Of a stretch of 64,000 nt of DNA, positions 1 to 58,059 are shown in pieces. Within the stretch, counting starts at the first letter, position 1, and every line of letters starts with the position of its first letter. The position numbers were made by a program, and so were the translations under genes. The notes beneath the pieces were generated by a model. It ran no database searches and was not told where the DNA came from. It was given only the letters and a program-made list of their open reading frames with translations. The stretch covers positions 14,694,001 to 14,758,000 of the forward strand of contig OX638149.1 of NCBI GenBank assembly GCA_951804945.1, in the 5' to 3' direction. Source of the stretch: Podarcis cretensis. Taxonomy: Eukaryota.

Positions 1-369
1 GAGAGCCCTGATCTGATTGGGACCATTGTGCATGAGGAGGAGGTTAAACCCCCACCCCTTCCCCCGCTGCGATCATGGAAAAATGAGCTCCTTGCAAAAT
101 AAACAGTGATGGGGGGACAACCTGCCTCAGGCATCAATATAACTTTTTTTTTTACAGGCTAGTTGCAAGAAAGAGAAATGTTAAACCTCTCCCCCTGACA
201 CGTGGGGGTCCCAATCCAGACCACTGCCCCCACCCGGTGCTTGGTTCCAATTTCCTGCTTCAAGCAACGCATCTGGAGTAATGTGCAAGGGAACCATTTA
301 AATCCAAGGAAATGGGAATGTTCACATTAGAATAGCTGTGTGTCCGTCCCCCCCAGCTCCTTTCCTTAC

Positions 370-3300
370 CTGTTGATCTTTTCTTTGGGGATTTCAAACT
401 TCTCATGCGACCAGGCGAAGACATGCCACTTTCGCTCATGGAATCATGCGCCGAGGATGCACTGCCAGTGGCTTCGCTGTCACGGATCATGCTTTCGTAG
501 CCGCTGCTGCCGCCGCTGTGGTAGAAAAGAGCCGTCCGGCCCATTGCTGGGGGCAGCTCCCCACTCAGGACGCTGCTGTTGTCGCTCCCGTGCCCGCTGC
601 TGTAGCGCTGAGGCCGCCTTGGGGCAGTTATCTTGCTGTACGGAGACGGCAGCACCGGGACCTGCGACTTCTCGTCGCTCAGATTAATCCCGCTGTCGTT
701 GCCGCTGTCGGAGTCCGTCGACACCCGGAAGTGGCTCATCTTGACCGAACTGCCCGATGCCAGCTCGTTCACACGGCTGTTGGCTGCCCTGATGGCCTGT
801 TTGGTCCCCATGATGGTTCCTCGACCCGGCTTGCTGCTTACGCCTTGCAGAGACCGCGGCACGGCTTTCCCACTCAAGGGGATGCCGGAGGTCTTCCCAA
901 CGGACGGAGCCAACGATTTCACAGAGGAGCTCAAAGACTTGGACCCGCTGGCCGAAAGGCTGCGGCTCTTATTCCCGTTGGCCGGTGTCTTCTGGCTTGC
1001 GGCACCTTTGGCCTGGCTGTTTTTGCCGGGCAAAGGTGTGGTGAGCGATGGAGGCGATGTCAAGCCAGAAGGGACAGGGGGAACTCCAAGCCTTGGAACC
1101 ATCCGGCCATTCCTGCCATTCCCAATGCTGCCATTTTCCCTACTCAGGTTGGCTTTTGATCCGACTGACGTCAGGCTGTCGCACCTCTCGAGGGACATGT
1201 GGCTCCCATATCGATGGACAGCTTCATTTTTGGATGCCTTTGCCTTCAAACTAGATGTCGCTTTGGGCAAGGAGTGGTCTGCCTTAAGGTTGCCTCTGCC
1301 GCCACTGTTTTCGGTAGCGCACAACCCAGCTCTTAATCGCAAATCAAACTCGTCCTCGTTCTTCGATGTAGTGGCCTTCCCCCCACTGTTCTGTATCCCG
1401 CCATTTTTCTGCTCGAGGCTTGATTTACGCACGGGGGGTGCTGGAGGTATTGTCCCACTTGGCCTGGGCAACATGCTGGATTTTTGCTGTAGGGTTTTCT
1501 TTTTCAGGCTTCCGGTGGCAAAAACAGCTTCACAACTTCCCCTGCTCATAGCTTCTGCAGCCGCACCGCTGCTGTGCGACACAGGAACCACACCCAGTGT
1601 TGTAGCACCTCTCCTGAGCTGCGGCATTTTTGTGACGGCATCGGGTTTTTTAGCCGCTCCGCTGGACGTTTTGCAGGCCATTTCACAACCATCGACAACC
1701 CTCTGTGAACAAGCAAGCATTGTCTGGGATTTTGTTGGCCTAGCTGTGCCATCTAAATGTTGGGCAGTCTTCGCCGACTGCTTCTCAGCGCTGAACATGG
1801 GAGAGTTTGGAGATATCAGCGAGTCTGCTTCCAAATGATCACCAGTACGAACCAGCCAGGGGTCTTCAAACATCACACGTGGTTTCTGCAGTTCCTTACA
1901 GCTGAGGGTGCTGTTGTTGTGGGTTGGGGATGAGGTAGCTTTTGTTCTCCGGGGAAGACTGGAGTGTATCGTTTCTATCACCATTGTGTTTTGAGAGCTG
2001 GAAGGCTTAGCATACGCTGGCTGGTCGGTGATGCAAAGAGCACTTTCTGTCTGAGATGCTTTGGTTACATCGCAGTTCTGAGGACTCCTGTTGACCCCTG
2101 GTGATGCTCTGATGGAAATCATGCTCTTGCTCTCCGGTTCCGAAAAGCAGAAGCCACTGTCGTTTAGGGCGGCTTGCAAGGGAACAGGAGCGTTGGGAGA
2201 ACCCATGATAAAGGGCTCCTCAGACTTGCTGCAGCTGTAAGAGGACTGAGCAAGAAAACCATCGCCGGACCGGCAGCCATCGCTCTCAATCGTACAGATG
2301 CTGACTTCGCTTAGCCACGAGCTGATGGAGGAACGTCTGCTACTGCTCGAGAACGGGTCTTCAGCAAAAGGCACGACGATATCAATGTTGACACCGGTGG
2401 CACTTGCCTGGGAGGTATAAGCATCAAACTCATCATTTATACTGCTGATGATACTAACTGGCCTGGATCCAGAGGCAAGGGCCTGCAGGGAGCAGTCGCT
2501 GTTGAAGCTGATGATGCTGGCAGGCCTCCCGTTATCCAAGATCCCACTGATGGACAACTCCTCAACAACCGTGAAGACAAGCTCATCTTCGCCATTGAGC
2601 TCCACAGGCTGCTGCAACGTCACCGTCGTCGTCAGGATATCCCGGTCGAAGCACTTGCTTCGGAAAGATGACCGGAACCTATGGACCTCTATGCCATCTC
2701 CTTGGTGCTCTGTGTTGCTAGTTGCCGAAAATGTGCTTCCTTCAGGGTTAGATTCAGATTCGCTACCCACTTGCTTGCTCATTCCCACGGGAGGCGTCCT
2801 GATTGCGTTACAGTGGTCAAACTTCAGGTACGTTTGCTTGGTCCTCATTGGAGACTCCTGCTGCTGCTGCTGCTGAGGGGGTGGGGGTGCAGGGCTGGGC
2901 AACGGCCTCTTGGCATACAAAGATTTCTCTTTCACAACCGGCTCAGCGACGGCTTGGCTTGGCTCTTGATCCTTAGCAGTATTACATGCCGGCAACTTAT
3001 AGGAGTCCTCCTTCTCTCCGTCTGAGTCCGCTCTCTTGCCTTCAGGCTTGGCTTGCTGTTTGGCGTGTTCCATCTTCGCGGGAGGGGCCTTCTTCTCAGG
3101 GCAGCTGCCATTGCGCTGGAAGTAAAGGCTGTGTCCTTTTTTGGGAGGCCCCGTTTCCTGCAATGCTGGTTTTTTAAACCCCCCAGGAGGAGACGGTGGT
3201 TTTGGTTTGGACTGTTCGCTTTCTGTACTCACCAGGATGGTGCCGCTGCAAGACGTGCCGGGAGCTTCCCCACCAAGGAACTTGGCAGGCTCTTCGCTTC

Positions 3301-3679
3301 CGTCGATGCATTCCAGCCGCTCCTGCAGCTCTGCGAAAGTGTTGCACTTAAAAAGGTCTTTGTCGGAGCTCTTTGTGAGGCCAGGGGTGTCCTTGTTTCT
3401 TTTCTTGTTCAGGGAAGGGATGATGGGAACAAACTCTGGGGGGCCTTCGTTATCTGTCAGCTCCCGGTCCGACAAAGCTGCACCGTTGGGACCCACGTAG
3501 ATGACTGTGTCGCAGGACTGTTCGCTGCTTGAGGAATAATCAGTCTCATTGGAAAGGTTCAGCACAGGAATGTCAGGGTCAAGAGCTACAGTCCTTGGAT
3601 GAAATGGCCTCAGGTGAGGAGGTCTTCGTATGTGTCCCTCTTCACATGAGCTTTCTCCTCCAGAAGAGCTGGATGCATA
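370..3679 (-). CDS. KIF26A: KIF26A large coding exon (3310 bp; probably the orthologue of mammalian exon 12), post-motor Ser/Pro-rich tail
   Basis: Acceptor ttgacAG|TATGCATCC at 3679 and donor TCAACAG|GTAAGG at 370. Translates YASSSSGGESSCEEGHIRRPPHLRPFHPRTVALDPD...TFAELQERLECIDGSEEP...QLRRGATTLGV...GRGTIMGTKQAIRAANSRV...RRPQRYSSGHGSDNSSVLSGELPPAMGRTALF...SLKSPKKRSTG. The motifs RRPPHLRPFHPRTVALDPD and GRGTIMGTKQA favour KIF26A over KIF26B (recalled sequences). Confidence 0.95.
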
Positions 3680-4539
3680 CTGTCAATTGCACAAAACAAT
3701 AAAATGCATTTTTTCGCATTAAATGCATTAAGTAGGGTGAGAGGCAGGTATATCCCTCCCACCCAGTGGCATTTGCAGTTCCACACCCCAAATCTTATTC
3801 TCTACTATAATTATGAGCAACATTTATAAATAGTCACGCTACAGAAAATTTGTTTGGCTCCCTGCAACAGATTTAGAGCACTTGGTCCATTCAAGCAACG
3901 CAGAAACTGTAGCCGCCCACAACTGAAAAGACCTTCAGCATTGTTTTGCCACAGCAGGAGCACCGATCCTGGTAACTTCTGGTTTGTTGTTGTTGTGTTA
4001 ACTAAGAAGTTCTCTGATTATGATGCTATATCATCTTGTTGTGTCCTATTGTTATTATTTATAGTCTGCCTTTTTCCCAGAGCAGGACTCAAGGCGGCTT
4101 ATGGATAGAATACCGAGGGAACTTCAGGGGATGTTAGAGGCAGCCTCCTGGGAGCAGAAGTGGCGGTAAAGTTTCCCATCCCTTTGAAAAGCCCTCAAGT
4201 GCACCCACCTACTGCCTACAAAAGGGACGGCAAAGTTCAGTGGGGAACATTTCATAGCACCTGCATATGCAATCCCAATATCTGATTTGCTTCTGTGCTG
4301 CTACCTTCTGAGTAGTGATTTTATTGCTGGGACAGACACTGAGTTACTGCATTTTAAAAAAATAAAAAAGCACTCGTTGCTTTGCAGCTTGTATCAGGCA
4401 AGTAAGATACATGAGTTAATGCTTGACACAGACTCAGGGCATGGTGCTGCCACAAACCATCTCCACTCTTTAGAGGTGTAAAAACAGCAGACATTATCCC
4501 TGGGTCAAGTATGGCAACCTAGACTTATATAGTTTACCA

Positions 4540-6726: not shown

Positions 6727-6912
6727 AAAGAAAGGGATAGAACTTCCTTCAAAATCCCAATGGCCAAGCAGATGGGACTGTCTGCAAAGGCGTACAATTG
6801 CCCCAACCCAGCAAAATGAATTCTTGGCTAATATTAACCCGGCTCCACATGGATTCACTCTTCTAAAATAAGTGAAGGCAGTACGAATTAAATGTGAGAC
6901 AGATCAACGTAC

Positions 6913-7096
6913 TTCCGCCTTTTCCTCCTTTCTCCATGCGATACTGATAGATGTGGAGGGTGAAGAGCATGTGCGAATTCCTCCGATCCTCTTCGTTGCA
7001 CTCGGGTTTGCTCGTACTCCTGGCTGCCAGGGCTGCGTCAAGGAAGAAAGCAGCCTTCTCTGCTGTTGGGGCCCTTAATTCGCTTTGATTTTGAAG
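6913..7096 (-). CDS. KIF26A: KIF26A exon (184 bp), switch I region
   Basis: atattccAG|CTTCAAAAT ... GGCGGAA|GTACGT; encodes [61 protein letters not shown]. Confidence 0.95.
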
Positions 7097-7365
7097 CTGG
7101 AATATAAACAAGAAAACGACTAATTAAGACGGGGTAACTGATCCCCCCCTCTCTGAACAGAGCAAGCCTCAAGGGTGCTAACGGAAACAAATATGTACAC
7201 TCTGGGATTAGGGATTAAAAATGGGAAAAAAAGCAATTAAAAAGTATTGTCTTTAAAATTGGTGAGAATTGTTGTCAGATCAAAGGAATTCATAAAAACA
7301 TTTATATAAATAAACCAGGGAACAAGGGTAAACCAGAATTTCAAAACTGCCCTGAGATCACATAC

Positions 7366-7628
7366 CTGAGTTCCGCATATCGGATCCTCGCGCAGATAGA
7401 CCCCTGGGGATTGCCCGTCCTGCAGGCTGCCGGTGGCTACTTCAGCTAACAAATCCTGAAGGTTTTCATCTTTCCCACTGATCTCCACAGCAGACACGCG
7501 AATGGAGAAACGAGTGCCGGTCTTCTCCTTCCGCTCGTTGATTAGTTTGAAGAGCCACGAGATGGCACAGGGAACAATGCCGAGACTTTGGGTGGAGTTA
7601 TCCTTTCCAATCATCGTGTAGGATTTGC
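7366..7628 (-). CDS. KIF26A: KIF26A exon (263 bp), motor domain
   Basis: cccttccAG|GCAAATCC ... GGAACTCAG|GTATGT; encodes (G)[87 protein letters not shown]. Confidence 0.95.
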
Positions 7629-7931
7629 CTGGAAGGGAAAGCGGAAATTTTATAATCATCAAGCACACAGCGGTAGCCCCGGTGCTGTCTTGCTCTGGAA
7701 GGCAACGGGTGTGCGCATCAGCACTGTTCTTCTTACTGAAGAGAAAGAAGTAGGGGAGGGATGTTCCCCATTTTGCCTCTCTTTGTCCCTGTGTTGTGCT
7801 TCCTGTGTGGCTCATGGCGTAGAGAACCTTAGTCCCAGGGGCCAAATGCCAGGCCTCTCTGTTCACCTATTAAGACTCTACCCATGCCACACACCTCACT
7901 GGCCTTCCTCTGCACCCATAGAGGATGGACA

Positions 7932-27328: not shown

Positions 27329-29641
27329 CTGAACAAAGTAATATTGAAGAAAGAAAGAAAAAAAAGGACAGTGTTATTATCTAGGAGGATCAATTTAGGC
27401 CAGTAAACCAGATGTTCAGTGCCATCGCTGCCTGTTGAACAAATCAAGCCATTTCTTTTTGCAATCAGATTTCATGAGAACCTTTCGCCAGGAGATTAAT
27501 AGAAGGAAACAGGGGCCAAAATATGGCTGGCATGACATTTGTGCAATTTCTCTCTCCAGTAGAGTTTCAATTATATCCTTTTTTAAAAAAAGAGAGAGAG
27601 AGAGACTTTTGGCAAGAGCTAAGAAGAAGAATCAAAGGTTGCCAAAGCCTCACGCCATTAAATGCTGAAATCATCCCCTTGTCACTCGCAGGCCCAGATG
27701 GACTTTGCCACTGCTCTGTTCACTAAGAAGTTATATTTTGTACCTAACAATTGAAGAGACAAAAGGGAAATGACTTCTGGCTATGGTTTACACAGGAGTT
27801 ATATTTTGTACTTAACAAGGTAAGAGACAAAGTGGCTTCTGGCTATAGCATAAGCCAGTTGGGTTGTGAGCCCCACTAGGGGGGATGGGGAGAGACAGTT
27901 GCATTTTCAAGCACACAAAAAATGAGAGCCCATGGCAGAATTCAGTTTGGTTCAAATGGATCAAATTCAATGTCCCTAATTTTTCATGTGCAGGTAACAT
28001 TTCTGCATGGAGGAGCATTTGGTCATGAGAGTTCCAACCTATAGTCTGATCTGGTTGAGCCCAGACTATAGCTTTACATCCGCATTCAGAATTTGGCCTT
28101 CAATGTGTAGAATGCCTATTTTGCTTTGATGGAGCAGAACATGATCTCCAGATACAGAATCTCAAGCAGTTCAGCTGGGACCAACTGTCATGTGATTCCT
28201 CCCCTCCTAGAACTGTCTCCCAATACAGCAAGATCAACTCCATTAGCTTTGGCCAAGGCAAGCAGATATTCGGCTCCTCCCCTCTCAGACCTGTTTCCCT
28301 CAGCGGCCATTTCACCTGATCCCAACAATAATCATGAAAGGATCTGTATTTGTATTTGCTTCCTTTCCTGCTCCCTTTTATATTGTATCTAAGGTATAGA
28401 AATACTTGGGAATAAATGCCTTGGAAGAAAGGTAACGTGTAACTGGATTAAGCAAAAAACAGTGCAATCCTACACATGCCTATTAAGAAAAGAACAATGG
28501 ACTTACAAGAAAGTGTGTACAGAGTTGTATAAGTAAAGAAGACATGCATGAACATCACTAAGGTTGACTCCCATTCCTCCAAAATTAAGAGAAACATTTG
28601 CCCACTAGAAAAATGGCAGAATCTGAAGCAACATCTAGTAACAAAAGTAAGGCTGAAAGGCAGCGCGAACCAAGGGGCCACAGAAAACAGTTCCATCTTA
28701 AAAGCACAATTTAATTTACATAATGTTTACATAAATGTGATTGACAACTGACATGAGGATTGTCTTGCAATTCAAGGACATTACTGCTGCATTTTTGGTC
28801 CTCATGCTTAAGTTTATTCTCTACGGCCAAACATCCACGTCTCAAAATGTTCCCGGGTTTATAAATGACACTTCCCATATTTTTGATTAATAGGGAATAT
28901 TATGCATATTCTAGCTTCCATTATGTGCTATAACATGGAAATAACAAACAGGGGGGAAATAGCTCTGGTGAATACTTTCAAAGCTCTATGAAGGGATGTA
29001 CACGGAATCCTGATAGATTAATGATTGCTTCAATACAGTCTGCAAATGGAGTCGCCTTGGGAGAAATATATAAAAGAGGATGCCAAGATTGAATTTACAC
29101 ATCCAATGTTTATTCAGACACCCAGGCTGAGTGTTAATAGCCAGATACGTTTAGCATACACAAGGGGATCAGCGAATGAAAAATGTAGGTCAAGTATGCT
29201 GTAAAGGTGTAAGTTCTGCCATAAAAGCCAAGGCCACAAACCAAGTTAGCTGTGCTCAGATGCACTGAAATCAACGGACTTAAACACATCTGACTGTGTT
29301 GGATTATGGCGTAACTTTTTAAAATAAAAAGGGCCAAAGCTGCCCACTGGAACTGGTAGGGTAAAAGTCAAGAATTCTAGCCAACGACAGGCAGAGCCCA
29401 ATAATTCTAGGTATTCCTCCATCCTCCTCACTGCCAAGTTCTACAAAGACGAAACGGAGGCTAAGGAGGAGGAAACTGACAGCCAGGTCTGCCTCCTGGA
29501 CTGGCTGCATAAGAAGGCAGGGTGTTTAGGGTTAAACCATGTCTAGGATGCCTAGGGAAGGATGTCAGTTTCAGCAACTGATTTTCATGGAGGAAGTCCA
29601 CCAGGAATGAGTTGCTCTGCTCATTAGGCCTGACGCTCAAC

Positions 29642-30156
29642 CAGGGGCGCCGACTTATAAAAAATATTGGGGGGGCGGGGGCCCATACCGACTTATAAAA
29701 AATATTGGGGGGGCCCAAGACCTCCAAACCGCTGCTGCTGGGGGAACGAAAGGGGCGAGCCCCGGGCTGCCCCGACCTTAAGTGAACCTGTGAGGGCCCG
29801 CCCTTTGCGGCAGCCGATTGGCTGCCGCCGTGGGCGGTGAATATTAATGAGCTAGGGGGAATCCCCGCTTCTCGCGGGGCTGACGCCAGCCCCGTGAGAT
29901 TGTTGATGGGTCGAGAGCCCGCAACCCCACCCCCTCTCTAGATCGGGAGTGGCTTTGTTTTAACTCATTACTGAATGTATTTTAAAAGGTAACTATCGTC
30001 AAACAAGGAAAATAAAAAATACCAACATAATTTTGTGATTTTACAAAGCATAATATAACTAATAATTTTTTTTAATTATTGGGGGGGCGGAGTCCCCCCA
30101 AACGAATTTTTGAGGGGGCTCGGGCCCCCTCAGGCCCCATGGAGTCGGCGCCTATG
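29642..30156. mobile_element. Non-autonomous hAT transposon (515 bp)
   Basis: 14-bp imperfect TIR CAGGGGCGCCGACT / AGTCGGCGCCTATG; perfect 8-bp TSD CGCTCAAC (29634-29641, 30157-30164); CpG-rich interior. Confidence 0.88.
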
Positions 30157-30211
30157 CGCTCAACCAAGTCTGTGGAGATCGTGTTTTTGCTAATAAAGAG
30201 TTAACTCCATC

Positions 30212-31078
30212 TTTTTTTTTTTTACGTTTGGCATTTTATGATTTTATTAAATTTCACCACCACCACCACCCTGCACAATACCATTTTGAGGCTTTGCCTC
30301 TTTTTCTCCTTTCTGATGCTGATGGTGGCTTTCTAAAAAGTTTAGAACATGTGAGCGGGGAAAGAAGTGTGTTTTGTGGTTGCTAGCCAAAACAGCAGCT
30401 TCTGTGGTCAGAAGTGGGCTATGCAGTGGTGGCGACTTGTAGTGGGGGATGGCTCTCACCATCAGTATGCCCTCCTCCTCTTGTTCCTTTTTTTTTTTTG
30501 AATAATATTTTATTAAGGGTTTTCTTGTTTTACAGTGTGAGTGTAATGCCTCGTATTTTTTTTCTCCATGTAACATTTTTACAAATCCAGCATGGACCAG
30601 TGGTACCAAATAGTATGGGAAACAGCCCTACTAGAAAAATTAACTAATAAACTGAAACTGACACGGGGACAAACAGAAGACACCTTCACCCCGGTATGGC
30701 TCCCCTTTATCACATACACAGCCCAACAGGACAATGACAATAATCCACCAACAGCATACAAATCAATATGGCTAACCTGATCCAAAACACCCACCCACCC
30801 CACTCACACACGAAAACAAAGATCACCACAGCCAATCACAAACAAACAATCACACCCTAGGCCAACCCCAACTTCTCTCACCACCAAAGGAACACAAGTG
30901 AACAACACAAGCATGCTGACACCAAACTCTACATACATTAAGCAAAATAGAAACACCGCTACCCGACCCCACCCCCATCCATCTCCCCTCCCTCCACCCC
31001 CTTTCTTTTTCTTTTCTTTTTTCTTCTTCTCCCCCTAATGCCTCAACAAATGAAACGGATTTGTAAAAATGTTACATG
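30212..31078 (-). mobile_element. L1-type insertion with 5' inversion and putative 3' transduction
   Basis: TSD GAGTTAACTCCATCTTT (30198-30214, 31079-31095); poly(T) runs at 30212-30223 and 30488-30499, each paired with AATAAA on the minus strand; inverted ORF2-end/3' UTR segment at 30589-31081 (MDQWYQIVWETALLEKL...FTPVWLPFITY). Confidence 0.8.
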
Positions 31079-33699
31079 GAGTTAACTCCATCTTTGAACT
31101 GTGCAATTACTGATCGGCACACTGCTGTGACATTCTGGCATGTTGAGAGAAGGAGGGGAAAACTTCTTCCTATCCACTTTTTCTGCATCATGCATAATTT
31201 TATGCGCCCCTTATCCTATCGCCCATTCCAACTCGCCTTTCCCTGAACTAAAAAGCCTTCGAATGATTTTAGGGAAAAGCTGAAGCAGCTGCTAGAGAGG
31301 GTCATTAACAATAAGAAAGGCCAAATGCAATGCTAATTTTACTTCACGTGGATCTTTTAAATATATACCAGACATTACAGTGCCCTCAGAGCACCCATTT
31401 GTACATGAAAGCATTTGGAAGAGCATCATCTGCCTTCTTAGTCACTTCTGAAGAGTATTAGAAGTATTGTTGGCACCAACGATTTCCAGCAGCAGATTCA
31501 GTGCATGAAAAGAAAGGGAGCCCCGGCTGAAAACAAGATGGAGGACTTAGATGCATGGAATGCAATGATCAAAAAGGCAAGGATTACCCAGTTACCCATC
31601 GGATCTTGGAATGACCACAAGAGAGCCTAGACTATTTATACATTAAATGCAAGACAGCTGCTCCCCCAGCATCTTTTGAGTTCCTGAGCCACTGGGCCAA
31701 TGTCAAGAGGCAGAGCCGCAGTTTGTACCACACATGATGCCTCTTGCAGCAAAAAAATTGAGCAGCTGCTACCTTGGTGGGCTTCCTTGGAGGAATTAAT
31801 AAAGCTACGCTGTAACCAAAACTGGCATGGCACCGCGCCTGAAACAGCAACCGGGAGAGCAAGCAATTTTAATTCCCAGAGTGCTCACCGATTCCAGAAC
31901 ATGCTTAGCAGTTTGCCCATATGGCGGAAGGAGGGTAGCGCTTAGCCCCATGACAAAAGTAAGTGAAATCTGTTTTGTTTTCCTTTCAAATGCCTCGGAT
32001 GTCGACAGAGGTGGGTCATACCAACTTGTGGCAGAATTGCACTTTGGGTGAAACCCAGAGGCAATTCTAGGACACGACGAGAAGATGTTTGGAAAGCTTC
32101 TTCCAAATCATTGTTCTGTTTAGGCGCCGGACTTTTCTGTGACTGCAGCCAGCTGTGCCACGCCAAATATCTGCCATAAAAAGAACGTTGCTTTGTCCAG
32201 GTGCAGCAATTTGTGCATATGGCGGACATGGCGATCTGGCAAGGAAAGCCTGCACTGGAAAGTTTCAATGAATACCATTTACGTAGTAAAGAGGTTCAGT
32301 GGTCAAGCACGTGTTTTCCATGTAAAGGTTCCCAGTACAATCCTTGCCAACTCCAGTTAAGGTGTGGAAACCCTGAAGATCTATCAGCCACTCAGTATAA
32401 GACAAGGCTGAGGTATATGGACAAATGGTCTGATTTCAAATAAAGCAGCCTTCTACATAAAACAGAAAGAGTAAGGCTGCTTGCCTTTATTTAAAGCACC
32501 TTTCCCACTCCTCCCCAAAAAAGGAATCCTGGGAAATGTAGTTTGTTAACAGCAACCCTCTTGGGGTAAACTACAGCTCCCAAGAGTCTTTGGAGTGTGT
32601 GTACTTTGAATATATGATGTGTACACAGCCTAAAATCTAACACAGTTACGAGGACAAATGAGCGATAACATGGTTTCCATTTACCTTCTTCAAGCTTATC
32701 ACTGACATATTTCAAAAGAAAGAGCCTGTGGTTGATTTCTAGCTCATGCACGTGACATAAATTAGTTCTCTCCTTCTGTTCAATCCCTAGCATAATTCCC
32801 AGACACAATCCGCAAGGCTGAGAAATGAAGGGATGCAGAAGTGGAGGAGGACAACAATGAGATGGAAGGACCACATGTTTGATTCCCGATGAGGAAGCTC
32901 CTCAAATTCTGACTAAGGTTAAGACGCATGCACTATTCCTTTCCTTGCACTTATGTAGCCTTCTAAAAGGACTCCAGAAAAAGAAGCCAAGGCACAGACT
33001 TTCAACAGCTTTCCCAATTAAGGCTTCTGAAATGCCGCTGTATATTAAATTCCCCTCCGACTGTGAGATCTACTGTCTGCATTTTGCTTAACTTTTCATC
33101 TTTAATAGAAGTTGTCTTTTAAGATGCTCCAGAGAGTTCTTTGCTCATAGCTAGGTGTCACAGCAGAAAATAAAAAATGAATATATGGCACAAGGAGGAG
33201 CACTCAAATATCAAGTGACAAGGGACAGGCCTCTAACCCGCTCTTTCCTCTGCACAATTTACAGATTGCTCAGTTGGCTGCTGTGCATGGAAGGCGAGGC
33301 AAAGCACACAGGGAGCCGGAGAAGACCAATTAACTAATGGCCTGCATCTGGAGAACAAAATGAAAGAGGAGGTGACAAACCCAGATACAGAAAGAAGTTC
33401 ACACTGGCCTGGTTTGCATGCAACACAAAACCATGGTCTAAAACACATCATGGTTTACCCAGTAACTTTATTGCAAATGATTAGCGTGCTGGTGCATGTT
33501 ACTCACTTACTCCTTACTCCTCCTTCCATGCAGTATAAGAAACAAACTAGAGTATGGGCTTAGCCCATACACTTGGGTTTGCTTCCTCTCTCATCCAGCA
33601 CACGGAGGGGTCACTGGAATAAATGGGCAACGGGCAACAGCATGCTGCTCAATCATGATAAGCCATGCTTTGTTTTAGACAATGGCTTTGTGTTACATA

Positions 33700-54644: not shown

Positions 54645-57600
54645 ATCATAGAATCATAGAGTTGGAAGAGACCACAAGGGCCATCGAGTCCAACCCCCTG
54701 CCAAGCAGGAAACACCATCAGAGCACTCCTGACATATGGTTGTCAAGCCTCTGCTTAAAGACCTCCAAAGAAGGAGACTCCACCACACTCCTTGGCAGCA
54801 AATTCCCCTGTCGAACAGCTCTTACTGTCAGGAAGTTCTTCCTAATGTTTATAATAATAATAATAATAATTTATTATTTGTACCCCGCCCATCTGGCTGG
54901 GTTTCCCCAGCCACTCTGGGCGGCTTCCAACAGAGATGAAAAATACACTAAAATATCACATATTAAAAACTTCCCTGAACAGGGCTGCCTTCAGATGTTT
55001 TCTGAATGTCAGGTAGTTGTCATACAGTGGTTCCGCTCCTTCCTCCTGGGCCGTGTTCAGAAAGTGGTGGTGGGGGATGAGTGTTCAGACCCCTGGGCTC
55101 TCACTTGTGGGGTGCCTCAGGGTTCTGTCCTCTCCCCCATGCTTTTCAACATCTACATGCAGCCGCTGGGGCATTCCACAGGGCATTCCACAGGGCGGGC
55201 GCCACTACCGAGAAGGCCCTCTGCCTGGTTCCCTGCAACTTGGCCTCTCGCAGTGAGGGAACCGCCAGAAGGCCCTCGGAGCTGGACCTCAGTGTCCGGG
55301 CAGACCGATGGGGGAGGAGACGCTCCTTCAGATATACTGGACCGAGGCCATTTAGGGCTTTAAAGGTCAGCACCAACACTTTGAATTGTGCTCGGAAACG
55401 TACTGGGAGCCAATGTAGGTCTTTCAAGACCGGTGTTATATGGTCTCGGCGGCCGCTCCCAGTCACCAGTCTAGCTGCCGCATTCTGGATTAGTTGTAGT
55501 TTCCGGGTCACCTTCAAAGGTAGCCCCACGTAGAGCGCATTGCAGTAGTCCAAGCGGGAGATAACCAGAGCATGTACCACTCTGGCGAGACAGTCTGCAG
55601 GCAGATAGGGTCTCAGCCTACGTACCAGATGGAGCTGGTAAACAGCTGCCCTGGATACAGATTTGACCTGTGCCTCCATGGACAGCTGTGAGTCCAAAAT
55701 GACTCCCAGGCTGCACACCTGGTCCTTCAGGGGCACAGTTACCCCATTCAGGACCAGGGAATCCTCCACACCTGCCCGCCTCCTGTCCCCCAAAAACAGT
55801 ACTTCTGTCTTGTCAGGATTCAACCTCAATCTGTTAGCCGCCATCCATCCTCCAACCGCTTCCAGACACTCACACAGGACCTTTACCGCCTTCACTGGTT
55901 CTGATTTAAAAGAGAGGTAGAGCTGGGTATCATCTGCATACTGATGAACACCCAGCCCAAACCTCCTGATGATCCCTCCCAGCGGCTGCATGTAGATGTT
56001 GAAAAGCATGGGGGAGAGGACAGAACCCTGAGGCACCCCACAAGTGAGAGCCCAGGGGTCTGAACACTCATCCCCCACCACCACTTTCTGAACACGGCCC
56101 AGGAGGAAGGAGCGGAACCACTGTATGACAGTGCCCCCAGCTCCCAGCCCCTCAAGACGGTCCAGAAGGATGTCATGGTCGATGGTATCAAACGCCGCTG
56201 AGAGATCCAGCAGAACTAGGAAACAGCTCTCACCTTTGTCCCTAGCCCGCCGGAGATCATCAACCAGTGCGACCAAGGCAGTTTCAGTCCCATGATGAGG
56301 CCTGAATCCCGACTGGAAGGGATACAAATGGTCCGCTTCTTCCAGGCGTGCCTGGAGTTGTTCAGCAACCACTCGCTCAATCACCTTGCCCAAGAATGGA
56401 AGGTTTGAGACTGGGCGATAATTGGCCATTGTGGCCGCATCTAGAGATGGTTTTTTAAGAAGCGGTTTAATAACCGCCTCTTTCAGCGGGTCTGGGAAGG
56501 CTCCCTCACGGAGGGAAACATTCACCACCCCACGAAGCCCATCGCCCAGTCCTTCCCGGCTAGCTTTTATAAGCCAGGATGGGCAAGGATCCAGGAGACA
56601 GGTGGTTGGCTTCACTCGTCCAAGCAGCCTGTCCACATCCTCGGAGGTAACAGATTGGAATTGATCCCACACAACTTGACCAGACAGGACTCTAGCACTC
56701 TCCCGCCCCGGCCCTGCTCCCACGGTGGAGTCTACTTCTTCCCGAATCTGAGCGATTTTATCTGCAAAAAAATTTGCAAAATCATTGCAGGAGAACATGT
56801 GGCCCGTACTGGGCCCCGATGTTACAGGTGGTTCCGCTAAATTGTGAACCACCTGAAAGAGTCTCCTGCTGCTGTTTTCTGCAGATGCAATAGAGGCGGT
56901 GAAGAAAGTCTTCTTCGCCGTCACTATCGCTACTTGGTAGGCTCGACGTTGAGCTCTAACCTGTGTCCGGTCAGATTCAGAATGGGTTATCCGCCACCGG
57001 CGCTCTAGCCGTCTCAACGATTGTTTCATTGCCCTCAGATCCGTGGAAAACCACGGGGCTCTCCGGGCTCCATGCAATCGGAGAGGGCGCTTCGGAGCCA
57101 AACAGTCAATAGCCCTGGTTAACTCCACATTCCAGCGGGCCACCAGGGAATCGGCTGAAAGGCCATCAACATGGGATAAAGCATCCCCTACCACTCTCTG
57201 GAAACCATTTGGATCCATTAAGTGGCGGGGGCGGACCATCCGAATCGGTCCCACCTCCCTGCAGAGGGGATGGGTCGCAGAGAAGTCCAGTTGCACCAGG
57301 AAGTGGTCTGACCATGGCACTTCTTTCGTTTCACTTTTACTTAGTGTCAGATCACCAACATCCGTAGAGGTAAACACCAGGTCCAAGGCATGTCCGCGGC
57401 TATGGGTTGGGCCAGACTTATTCAGGGACAGCCCCATGGAGGCCATGCTTTCCACGAAGTCCCGAGCGGCCCCTTGTAAGGTCGTGTCGGCATGGATGTT
57501 AAAATCCCCTAGGACGACCAAGCTAGGTGTCTCCAGGAGAACATCCGCCACGACCTGAAGCAGCTCGGGCAGGGAATCCTTGGTGCAGCGGGGAGGTCGG

Positions 57601-58059
57601 TACACCAAAAGGAATCCTGTACTGCCCCTATTGCCCAACTTCCAGAACATGCACTCAGGTGGAATCTTCTTTCTTGTAGTTTGGAACCATTGCTCCGTGT
57701 CCGCTTCTCTGGAGCAGCAGAAAACAACCTTTCTCCCTCCTCTATGTGACATCCTTTTATATATTTGAACATGGCTATCATATCACCCCTTAACCTCCTC
57801 TTCTCCAGGCTAAACATGCCCAGCTCCCTTAGCCGTTGCTCATAAGGCATCGTTTCCAGGCCTTTGACCATTTTGGTTGCCCTCCTCTGGACACCTTCCA
57901 GTTTGTCAGTGTCCTTCTTGAACTGTGGTGCCCAGAACTGGACACAGTACTCCAGGTGAGGTCTGACCAGAGCAGAATACAGTGGCACTATTACTTCCCT
58001 TGATCTAGATGCTATACTCCTATTGATGCAGCCCAGAATTGCATTGGCTTTTTTAAGCT
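54645..58059 (-). mobile_element. CR1 3' fragment split by L2 (parts 54645-54850 and 57657-58059)
   Basis: [44 protein letters not shown]...ERRFHL continues into the left part, which ends in the ATTCTATG-type CR1 tail (ATCATAGAATCATAG on the plus strand). Confidence 0.92.
54851..57656 (-). mobile_element. Young 5'-truncated L2 LINE with open EN-RT frame
   Basis: About 830 uninterrupted codons: APE motifs VYRPP, GDFN, LDL, SDH; RT motifs YRPVS, QSGFR, LDLSAAFD, GVPQGSVLSP, YADD; L2 C-terminal LDYCNAL, QNAAARL, LHWLPV; (TTA)n tail at 54851. Confidence 0.95.

Follow-up and report, generated by a model that had tools for sequence, protein, structure and literature searches.

Surroundings of the insertion

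The DNA analysed here is a 64-kb stretch (the window), whose minus strand carries exons of a KIF26-like kinesin gene (Table 1), with kinesin motor exons at about 6-12 kb. An exon encoding the KIF26 N-terminal domain is found 17 kb past the window end (C1:14775406-14775579, minus). The L1 insertion described below is situated between this exon and the motor exons, which places it very likely within an intron of the predicted KIF26-like gene and in sense orientation.

Two further elements were noted in the window. A short element at 29642-30156 has 14-bp terminal inverted repeats (12/14) and an 8-bp duplication (29634-29641 / 30157-30164) and ends 41 bp from the target site duplication (TSD) of the L1; we take it to resemble a hAT-type MITE. 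On the minus strand, 55146-57782 holds an 878-aa LINE frame with endonuclease and RT domains.

Table 1. Position and orientation of the parts of the insertion and of the surrounding gene (window coordinates).
Feature	Position	Strand	Remarks
KIF26-like kinesin exons	260-3682, 6278, 7078, 7563-7629, 12138	minus	include a 1140-codon open frame
TSD 5' copy, 17 bp	31079..31095	minus	final 3 nt (31081-31079; CTC read on minus) agree with L1 where the inverted piece starts
Arm 1 of perfect 25-nt inverted repeat	31057..31081	plus	duplicated L1 sequence; 22 nt and the 3 nt common to the TSD
Inverted L1 segment, 493 nt	30589..31081	plus	ORF2 end and the bulk of the 3' UTR, oriented contrary to the poly(A) end
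ORF2 last 63 codons and stop, within inverted segment	30589-30780	plus	
Arm 2 of 25-nt inverted repeat	30564..30588	minus	opens the non-inverted L1 piece; blunt junction 30588/30589
Non-inverted L1 3' end, 89 nt	30500..30588	minus	100% identical to a copy on C12 over 89 nt
L1 poly(A) signal AATAAA	30509..30514	minus	usual signal of the L1 family
Internal A12	30488..30499	minus	final two A common to the C13 origin
264-bp tag	30224..30487	minus	98% identical to G000:C13:52339859-52340122
Second AATAAA	30243..30248	minus	19 nt ahead of the tail; first AATAAA downstream of the C13 origin
Terminal A12	30212..30223	minus	30222-30215 untemplated; 30223 templated at C13; 30214-30212 within the TSD
TSD 3' copy, 17 bp	30198..30214	minus	

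Anatomy of the insertion

In the minus reading the insertion is an 898-nt unit (31095-30198) flanked by identical 17-mers (31095-31079 and 30214-30198; 17 bp, no mismatch) that occur nowhere else in the 64-kb window. Its parts follow in the order TSD, 490 nt of inverted L1, 89 nt of L1 in sense, A12, tag, tail and TSD. The initial annotation, made from the sequence alone, had recognised the bracketing 17-bp TSD. The positions it gave for the two AATAAA signals (30514-30509 and 30248-30243), the internal A12 (30499-30488) and the tag (30487-30224) are all correct, as are the 19-nt spacing from the second signal to the tail and the implied nick CTTT/GA. The terminal A12 was likewise placed correctly at 30223-30212; it does not abut the TSD as had been said, but overlaps it by 3 nt. 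With these 3 nt assigned to the TSD and the first A templated by the C13 origin, about 8 A are left as added tail. The internal A12 is likely the tail of the parent L1.

The recipient site is typical of the L1 family, with its 17-bp TSD and a pyrimidine-then-A start. TSDs measured 12-19 bp in 27 family copies in which they were clear, a set that leaves out copies with no TSD, with a TSD under 12 bp or with a match far from the tail, and three doubtful calls. The base before the TSD was T in 12, C in 9, A in 5 and G in 1 of these copies (T or C in 21), and the first TSD base was A in 17.

The L1 family

At first look 2668 candidate members of the family were found, of which 40 were scored. The near-full-length copy L069 (C9) has about 7.3 kb in common with another long copy. 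Its ORF2 contains Exo_endo_phos at residues 10-230 and RVT_1 at 533-784 and, in a comparison with solved structures only, scored 522 bits against LINE-1 ORF2p over residues 6-914 and at most 92 bits against R2 proteins. An upstream 432-aa frame gave three weak matches, all below the cut-off and none to an L1 ORF1 family. Judged by the APE-type endonuclease with RT, by the ORF2p score and by the AATAAA, A-rich tail and TSD, the family likely belongs to the L1 clade, though it may fall within the sister Tx1 group. Its 3' end consists of AATAAA and a short A/T-rich tail. The inverted piece in the window matches the end of this ORF2, the segment being 95.8% identical to 6837-7331 of the reference stretch from L069.

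Neither the TSD nor the 25-nt duplication has decayed, and over its 493 nt the inverted piece shows 2 private changes, at 30873 and 30945. Within a set of 35 copies drawn from the best matches among the 2668 candidates, the nearest differs at 11/489 sites; the median among the others is 3.1%. These values suggest an insertion that is fairly recent yet not new, with neither a close sibling nor a parent among the best matches. An absent parent would be expected to leave the copy without a near-identical sibling.

Several other copies showed features of their own. The tail ending of the window copy is also present in L036, L040, L008 and L011, the first two agreeing with it exactly over 36 nt, and is possibly the marker of a sub-lineage. 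Three near-identical truncated copies (L122, L123 and L124; G000:C10:63.40-63.48 Mb) lie within 80 kb in a tandem repeat unit and were likely duplicated along with the array after insertion; the apparent 180-nt tails of L122 and L123 were considered as transductions and rejected, being due to insertion into the tandem unit. In L064 (G000:C15:43148057-43148089) the tail includes, inside the TSD, a 33-nt piece of another repeat and a second A-tract, which would fit either a short transduction or a template switch. This piece has 3076 matches within 2 mismatches and is therefore untraceable, so that L064 was rejected as a second transduction. No second traceable transduction was found among the family copies examined.

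5' inversion

Most of the L1 part is a 5' inversion of the twin-priming type, which the initial annotation had overlooked. The minus-strand L1 3' end described initially is correct for 30588-30500 only; beyond it, over 30589-31081, the L1 runs the other way. A repeat scan revealed a perfect 25-nt inverted repeat (30564-30588 / 31057-31081). In four other copies (on C19, C18, C5 and C2) the two L1 parts are co-oriented and overlap by 25 nt, whereas the window has them pointing towards each other, from which it follows that the front L1 part has been inverted. At the second priming site the TSD end pairs with the L1 RNA over 3 nt (CTC), and at 5 of the last 7 nt. The internal inversion junction (30588/30589) is blunt, without microhomology. 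Microhomology at this junction is typical of twin priming and is taken here as not obligatory.

Inversions were also counted in 52 distinct copies, picked by their last 87-89 nt only and excluding the window copy. Seven ran off the fetched DNA. Among the 45 resolved, six were 5'-inverted (L036, L042, L044, L057, L065 and L116; inverted pieces of 23-263 nt), each with a TSD of 12-16 bp, and 39 were without inversion. The internal junction of L036 is likewise blunt, and those of L042, L044, L057 and L065 have 2-4 nt of microhomology. L036 carries both the window-type tail ending and an inversion; in L044 near-perfect pairing extends over about 11 nt at the priming site.

The tag and its origin

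Outside the window the tag has exactly one match in the genome, on another contig (G000:C13:52339859-52340122), with 5/264 differences. None of 50 other distinct family copies carries it. It is foreign to the L1 family, as had been proposed, and the alternative that it forms part of the normal 3' UTR of the family was rejected on these 50 copies. Identity between tag and C13 begins at the A-tract, where two A are common to both, and ends at the tail; beyond the cleavage point the C13 sequence is T-rich. Since the origin is followed by non-A sequence, the tail was acquired at the RNA stage.

At C13 the tag lies wholly within an 829-bp GT-AG intron, the last of a CHD3-like gene with exons for CHDCT2 and CHD-II SANT-like domains, and is antisense to that gene. 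From its C-terminal sequence we take the gene to be CHD3, not CHD4 or CHD5. The nearest same-strand ORF seen encodes a RING finger about 9.3 kb upstream of the tag; six AATAAA lie between them, making a host read-through RNA from the RING-finger gene less likely. This ORF (L003:141-560, plus), which in view of human gene order is perhaps RNF227, is convergent with the CHD3-like gene. A search for structured RNA at the tag origin returned 0 Rfam matches in L002, the sequence holding the origin.

The initial annotation expected the tag to match DNA directly 3' of a full-length L1 and so to identify the active source locus. No L1 adjoins the C13 tag origin in the assembly. Nor is there a same-strand family copy in C13:52120001-52350000, which takes in about 220 kb upstream of the tag origin, the sole copy there being on the opposite strand and 89.6% identical. 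Of the proposed 3' transduction, therefore, the foreign tag, its single origin, its end at the first downstream AATAAA and the untemplated tail stand, and the source L1 does not: the tag leads to an empty site instead of an active source.

Tag contigs in sequencing runs

The C13 site was also inspected in contigs of four sequencing runs (X1-X4; 4 of 24 listed, under one species label and from one study), one of which may be the assembly's own sample. Contigs of all four span the empty junction. They contained neither an L1-filled allele, though contigs can drop alleles, nor a loose end towards the L1 5' end at the junction.

A second, diverged copy of the tag was present in three of the four runs (X1, X3 and X4), in two of them after an A-run: the second contigs of X1 and X4 open with 18-19 loose A followed by the tag, where the window has 12 A. 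The extra contigs show nested sets of 2, 3 and 4 differences in the first 89 nt (L002:1499-1587), the contig of X3 having four. In X1 a branch is also seen at the tail point, and the main contig of X4 carries the base of the daughter insertion at L002:1647. X2 gave one 10.5-kb contig and no second tag copy, contigs being able to show presence, not absence. Depth ratios fit an extra part-copy in X4 and do so poorly in X1, and are not taken as copy numbers. From the extra tag contigs in some runs, the daughter insertion may be polymorphic; the extra copies may be alleles of a single daughter or distinct daughters. A 28-nt loose end in X4 at L002:1929 (contig depth 3.4) is probably an error or a chimera.

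Origin of the insertion

We consider it probable (roughly 0.8) that the insertion arose by read-through from a parent L1, now rare or lost, followed by twin-primed insertion. Because no source L1 lies at the tag origin, we call the event transduction-like and infer the read-through. Some haplotype would have carried a transcribed L1, in antisense orientation, at C13:52339858/59. The polymerase would have run past the AATAAA and the A-tract of this L1, halting at the next AATAAA 264 nt on. ORF2p would have nicked CTTT/GA in the KIF26-like intron and copied the tail, the tag, the A-tract and 89 nt of L1; a second nick, 17 bp off, would have paired via CTC with the same RNA, a further 490 nt would have been copied, and the two cDNAs would have been joined bluntly. 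The parent allele would have stayed rare or been lost, the short daughter persisting.

In favour of this sequence of events, one TSD of a length and start typical of the family brackets all parts. The tag has a single match elsewhere and is found in 0/50 other copies, and its end lies 19 nt past the first downstream AATAAA. Four copies have the L1 parts co-oriented with the 25-nt overlap, and the nearest of the 35 best-match copies is 11/489 off. The six AATAAA upstream of the tag speak against a host read-through RNA. Sources absent from a reference are common in human, where they account for 51/268 high-confidence L1 transductions (PMC9311842, Table 4), and full-length L1 elements in anoles are held at low frequency (PMC3787681, PMC5389967).

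Against it stands a parent L1 that was seen neither in the assembly nor in the spanning contigs of all four runs. The implied parent TSD is preceded by G, a base found there in only 1/27 family sites and in one further site. The 5/264 differences in the tag, together with extra contigs having 2, 3 and 4 differences and longer A-tracts, are not simply what one young daughter would give. The inversion junction lacks microhomology, and the 35 copies compared come only from the best matches among 2668 candidates.

The empty C13 site would be explained without a parent L1 if ORF2p had begun on a polyadenylated host transcript running antisense to the CHD3-like gene, had copied 264 nt of it, and had jumped via the AA at the tag start to the poly(A) of an L1 RNA, on which twin priming completed the insertion. 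The AA microhomology at the junction of tag and A-tract and the rarity of G (1/27) at family target sites are in keeping with such a switch, and LINE switching is reported in Anolis for U6 chimeras (PMC4476161). It would, however, require an antisense host RNA ending within the last intron, with six AATAAA before the nearest same-strand ORF seen, as well as a switch and twin priming in a single event; moreover, PMC4476161 describes chimeras with the host RNA on the 5' side, opposite to the order here. We regard this course as unlikely.

Far less probable are two successive events, in which an inverted L1 was followed by a short retrocopy of host RNA inserted into its A tail, the duplication being masked as A-runs. 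A-runs do occur on both sides of the tag and no parent L1 would be required, but about 8 added A after the tag are too few for a family-type TSD of 12-19 bp plus a tail, and the same unobserved host RNA would be needed.

Hardly any weight is given to read-through of a distant upstream L1 on C13 spliced to an acceptor where the tag begins: at C13 the bases just ahead of the tag are indeed pyrimidine-rich and include AG, but the only family copy in C13:52120001-52350000 is the opposite-strand one. It is equally improbable that a DNA-level duplication or an assembly artefact produced the 98% identity of the tag with another locus, as this identity ends exactly at the A-tract and at the poly(A) cleavage point, the right flank is single-copy, and a diverged second tag copy is found in three of four runs (one maybe the assembly's own sample), after an A-run in two. 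Segmental duplication of the recipient flank was rejected, only weak matches to old repeats having been obtained.

Significance

The insertion is a well-resolved instance of known mechanisms, in a host group that is likely new for them. As a single event it combines features well known from mammals, and its value is comparative: scars of mammalian type are seen in what is likely a reptile L1 family, and a cell-culture study linked inversions to host type, human L1 giving inversions in human cells and none in chicken DT40 cells (PMC4245944). In the literature no description of twin priming or transduction in reptile L1 was found, a weak result as subscription papers were mostly outside the search. 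Passages on twin priming in PMC4476161 and PMC5389967 tie it to mammals or do no more than cite it.

The tag serves as a marker for parent elements absent from the assembly. The insertion brings two predicted poly(A) signals, in sense, into an intron of the KIF26-like gene, the inferred parent having stood in an intron of the CHD3-like gene. We give an even chance to the broader proposition that a non-mammalian L1 family routinely undergoes twin priming and 3' transduction, both of which would therefore predate mammals, and that tags from empty sites record purged parents. If this is true, a genome-wide count of empty versus filled tag origins would directly measure the loss rate of full-length reptile L1 parents, whose turnover has so far been addressed via allele frequencies.

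Comparison with known systems

Twin-primed inversion and 3' transduction are both textbook processes in mammals, and partnered L1 3' transduction was reportedly first described in humans in 1999-2000.

Twin-primed insertions reported in PMC2912911 and PMC4245944 have the same inverted 5' piece beside the TSD, microhomology at the priming site and an overlap or gap at the break. Their TSDs of 10-20 bp likewise agree with the 17 bp found here, whereas the window copy differs from them in having no microhomology at the internal junction. Inverted elements made up 639/2068 (30.9%) of human and chimpanzee L1 (PMC2912911, Table 2) against 6/45 here, samples that are not comparable, the present one being small.

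The U6/LINE chimeras, including those of Anolis, resemble the insertion in that one TSD surrounds a LINE piece and a host-derived piece (PMC4476161). In the chimeras, however, the snRNA is at the 5' side, whereas here the 3' side is intronic DNA equipped with a signal and tail of its own.

Partnered 3' transduction in human (PMC9311842) differs from the present case in that the family here is likely non-mammalian and no source element stands at the tag origin. In other respects the two agree: an L1 3' end that has a signal and an A-tract of its own, a unique tag from another chromosome and a single TSD around both, with a second signal 10-40 nt before the tail. The 264 bp of the tag likewise fall within the 8-997 bp of the human transductions.
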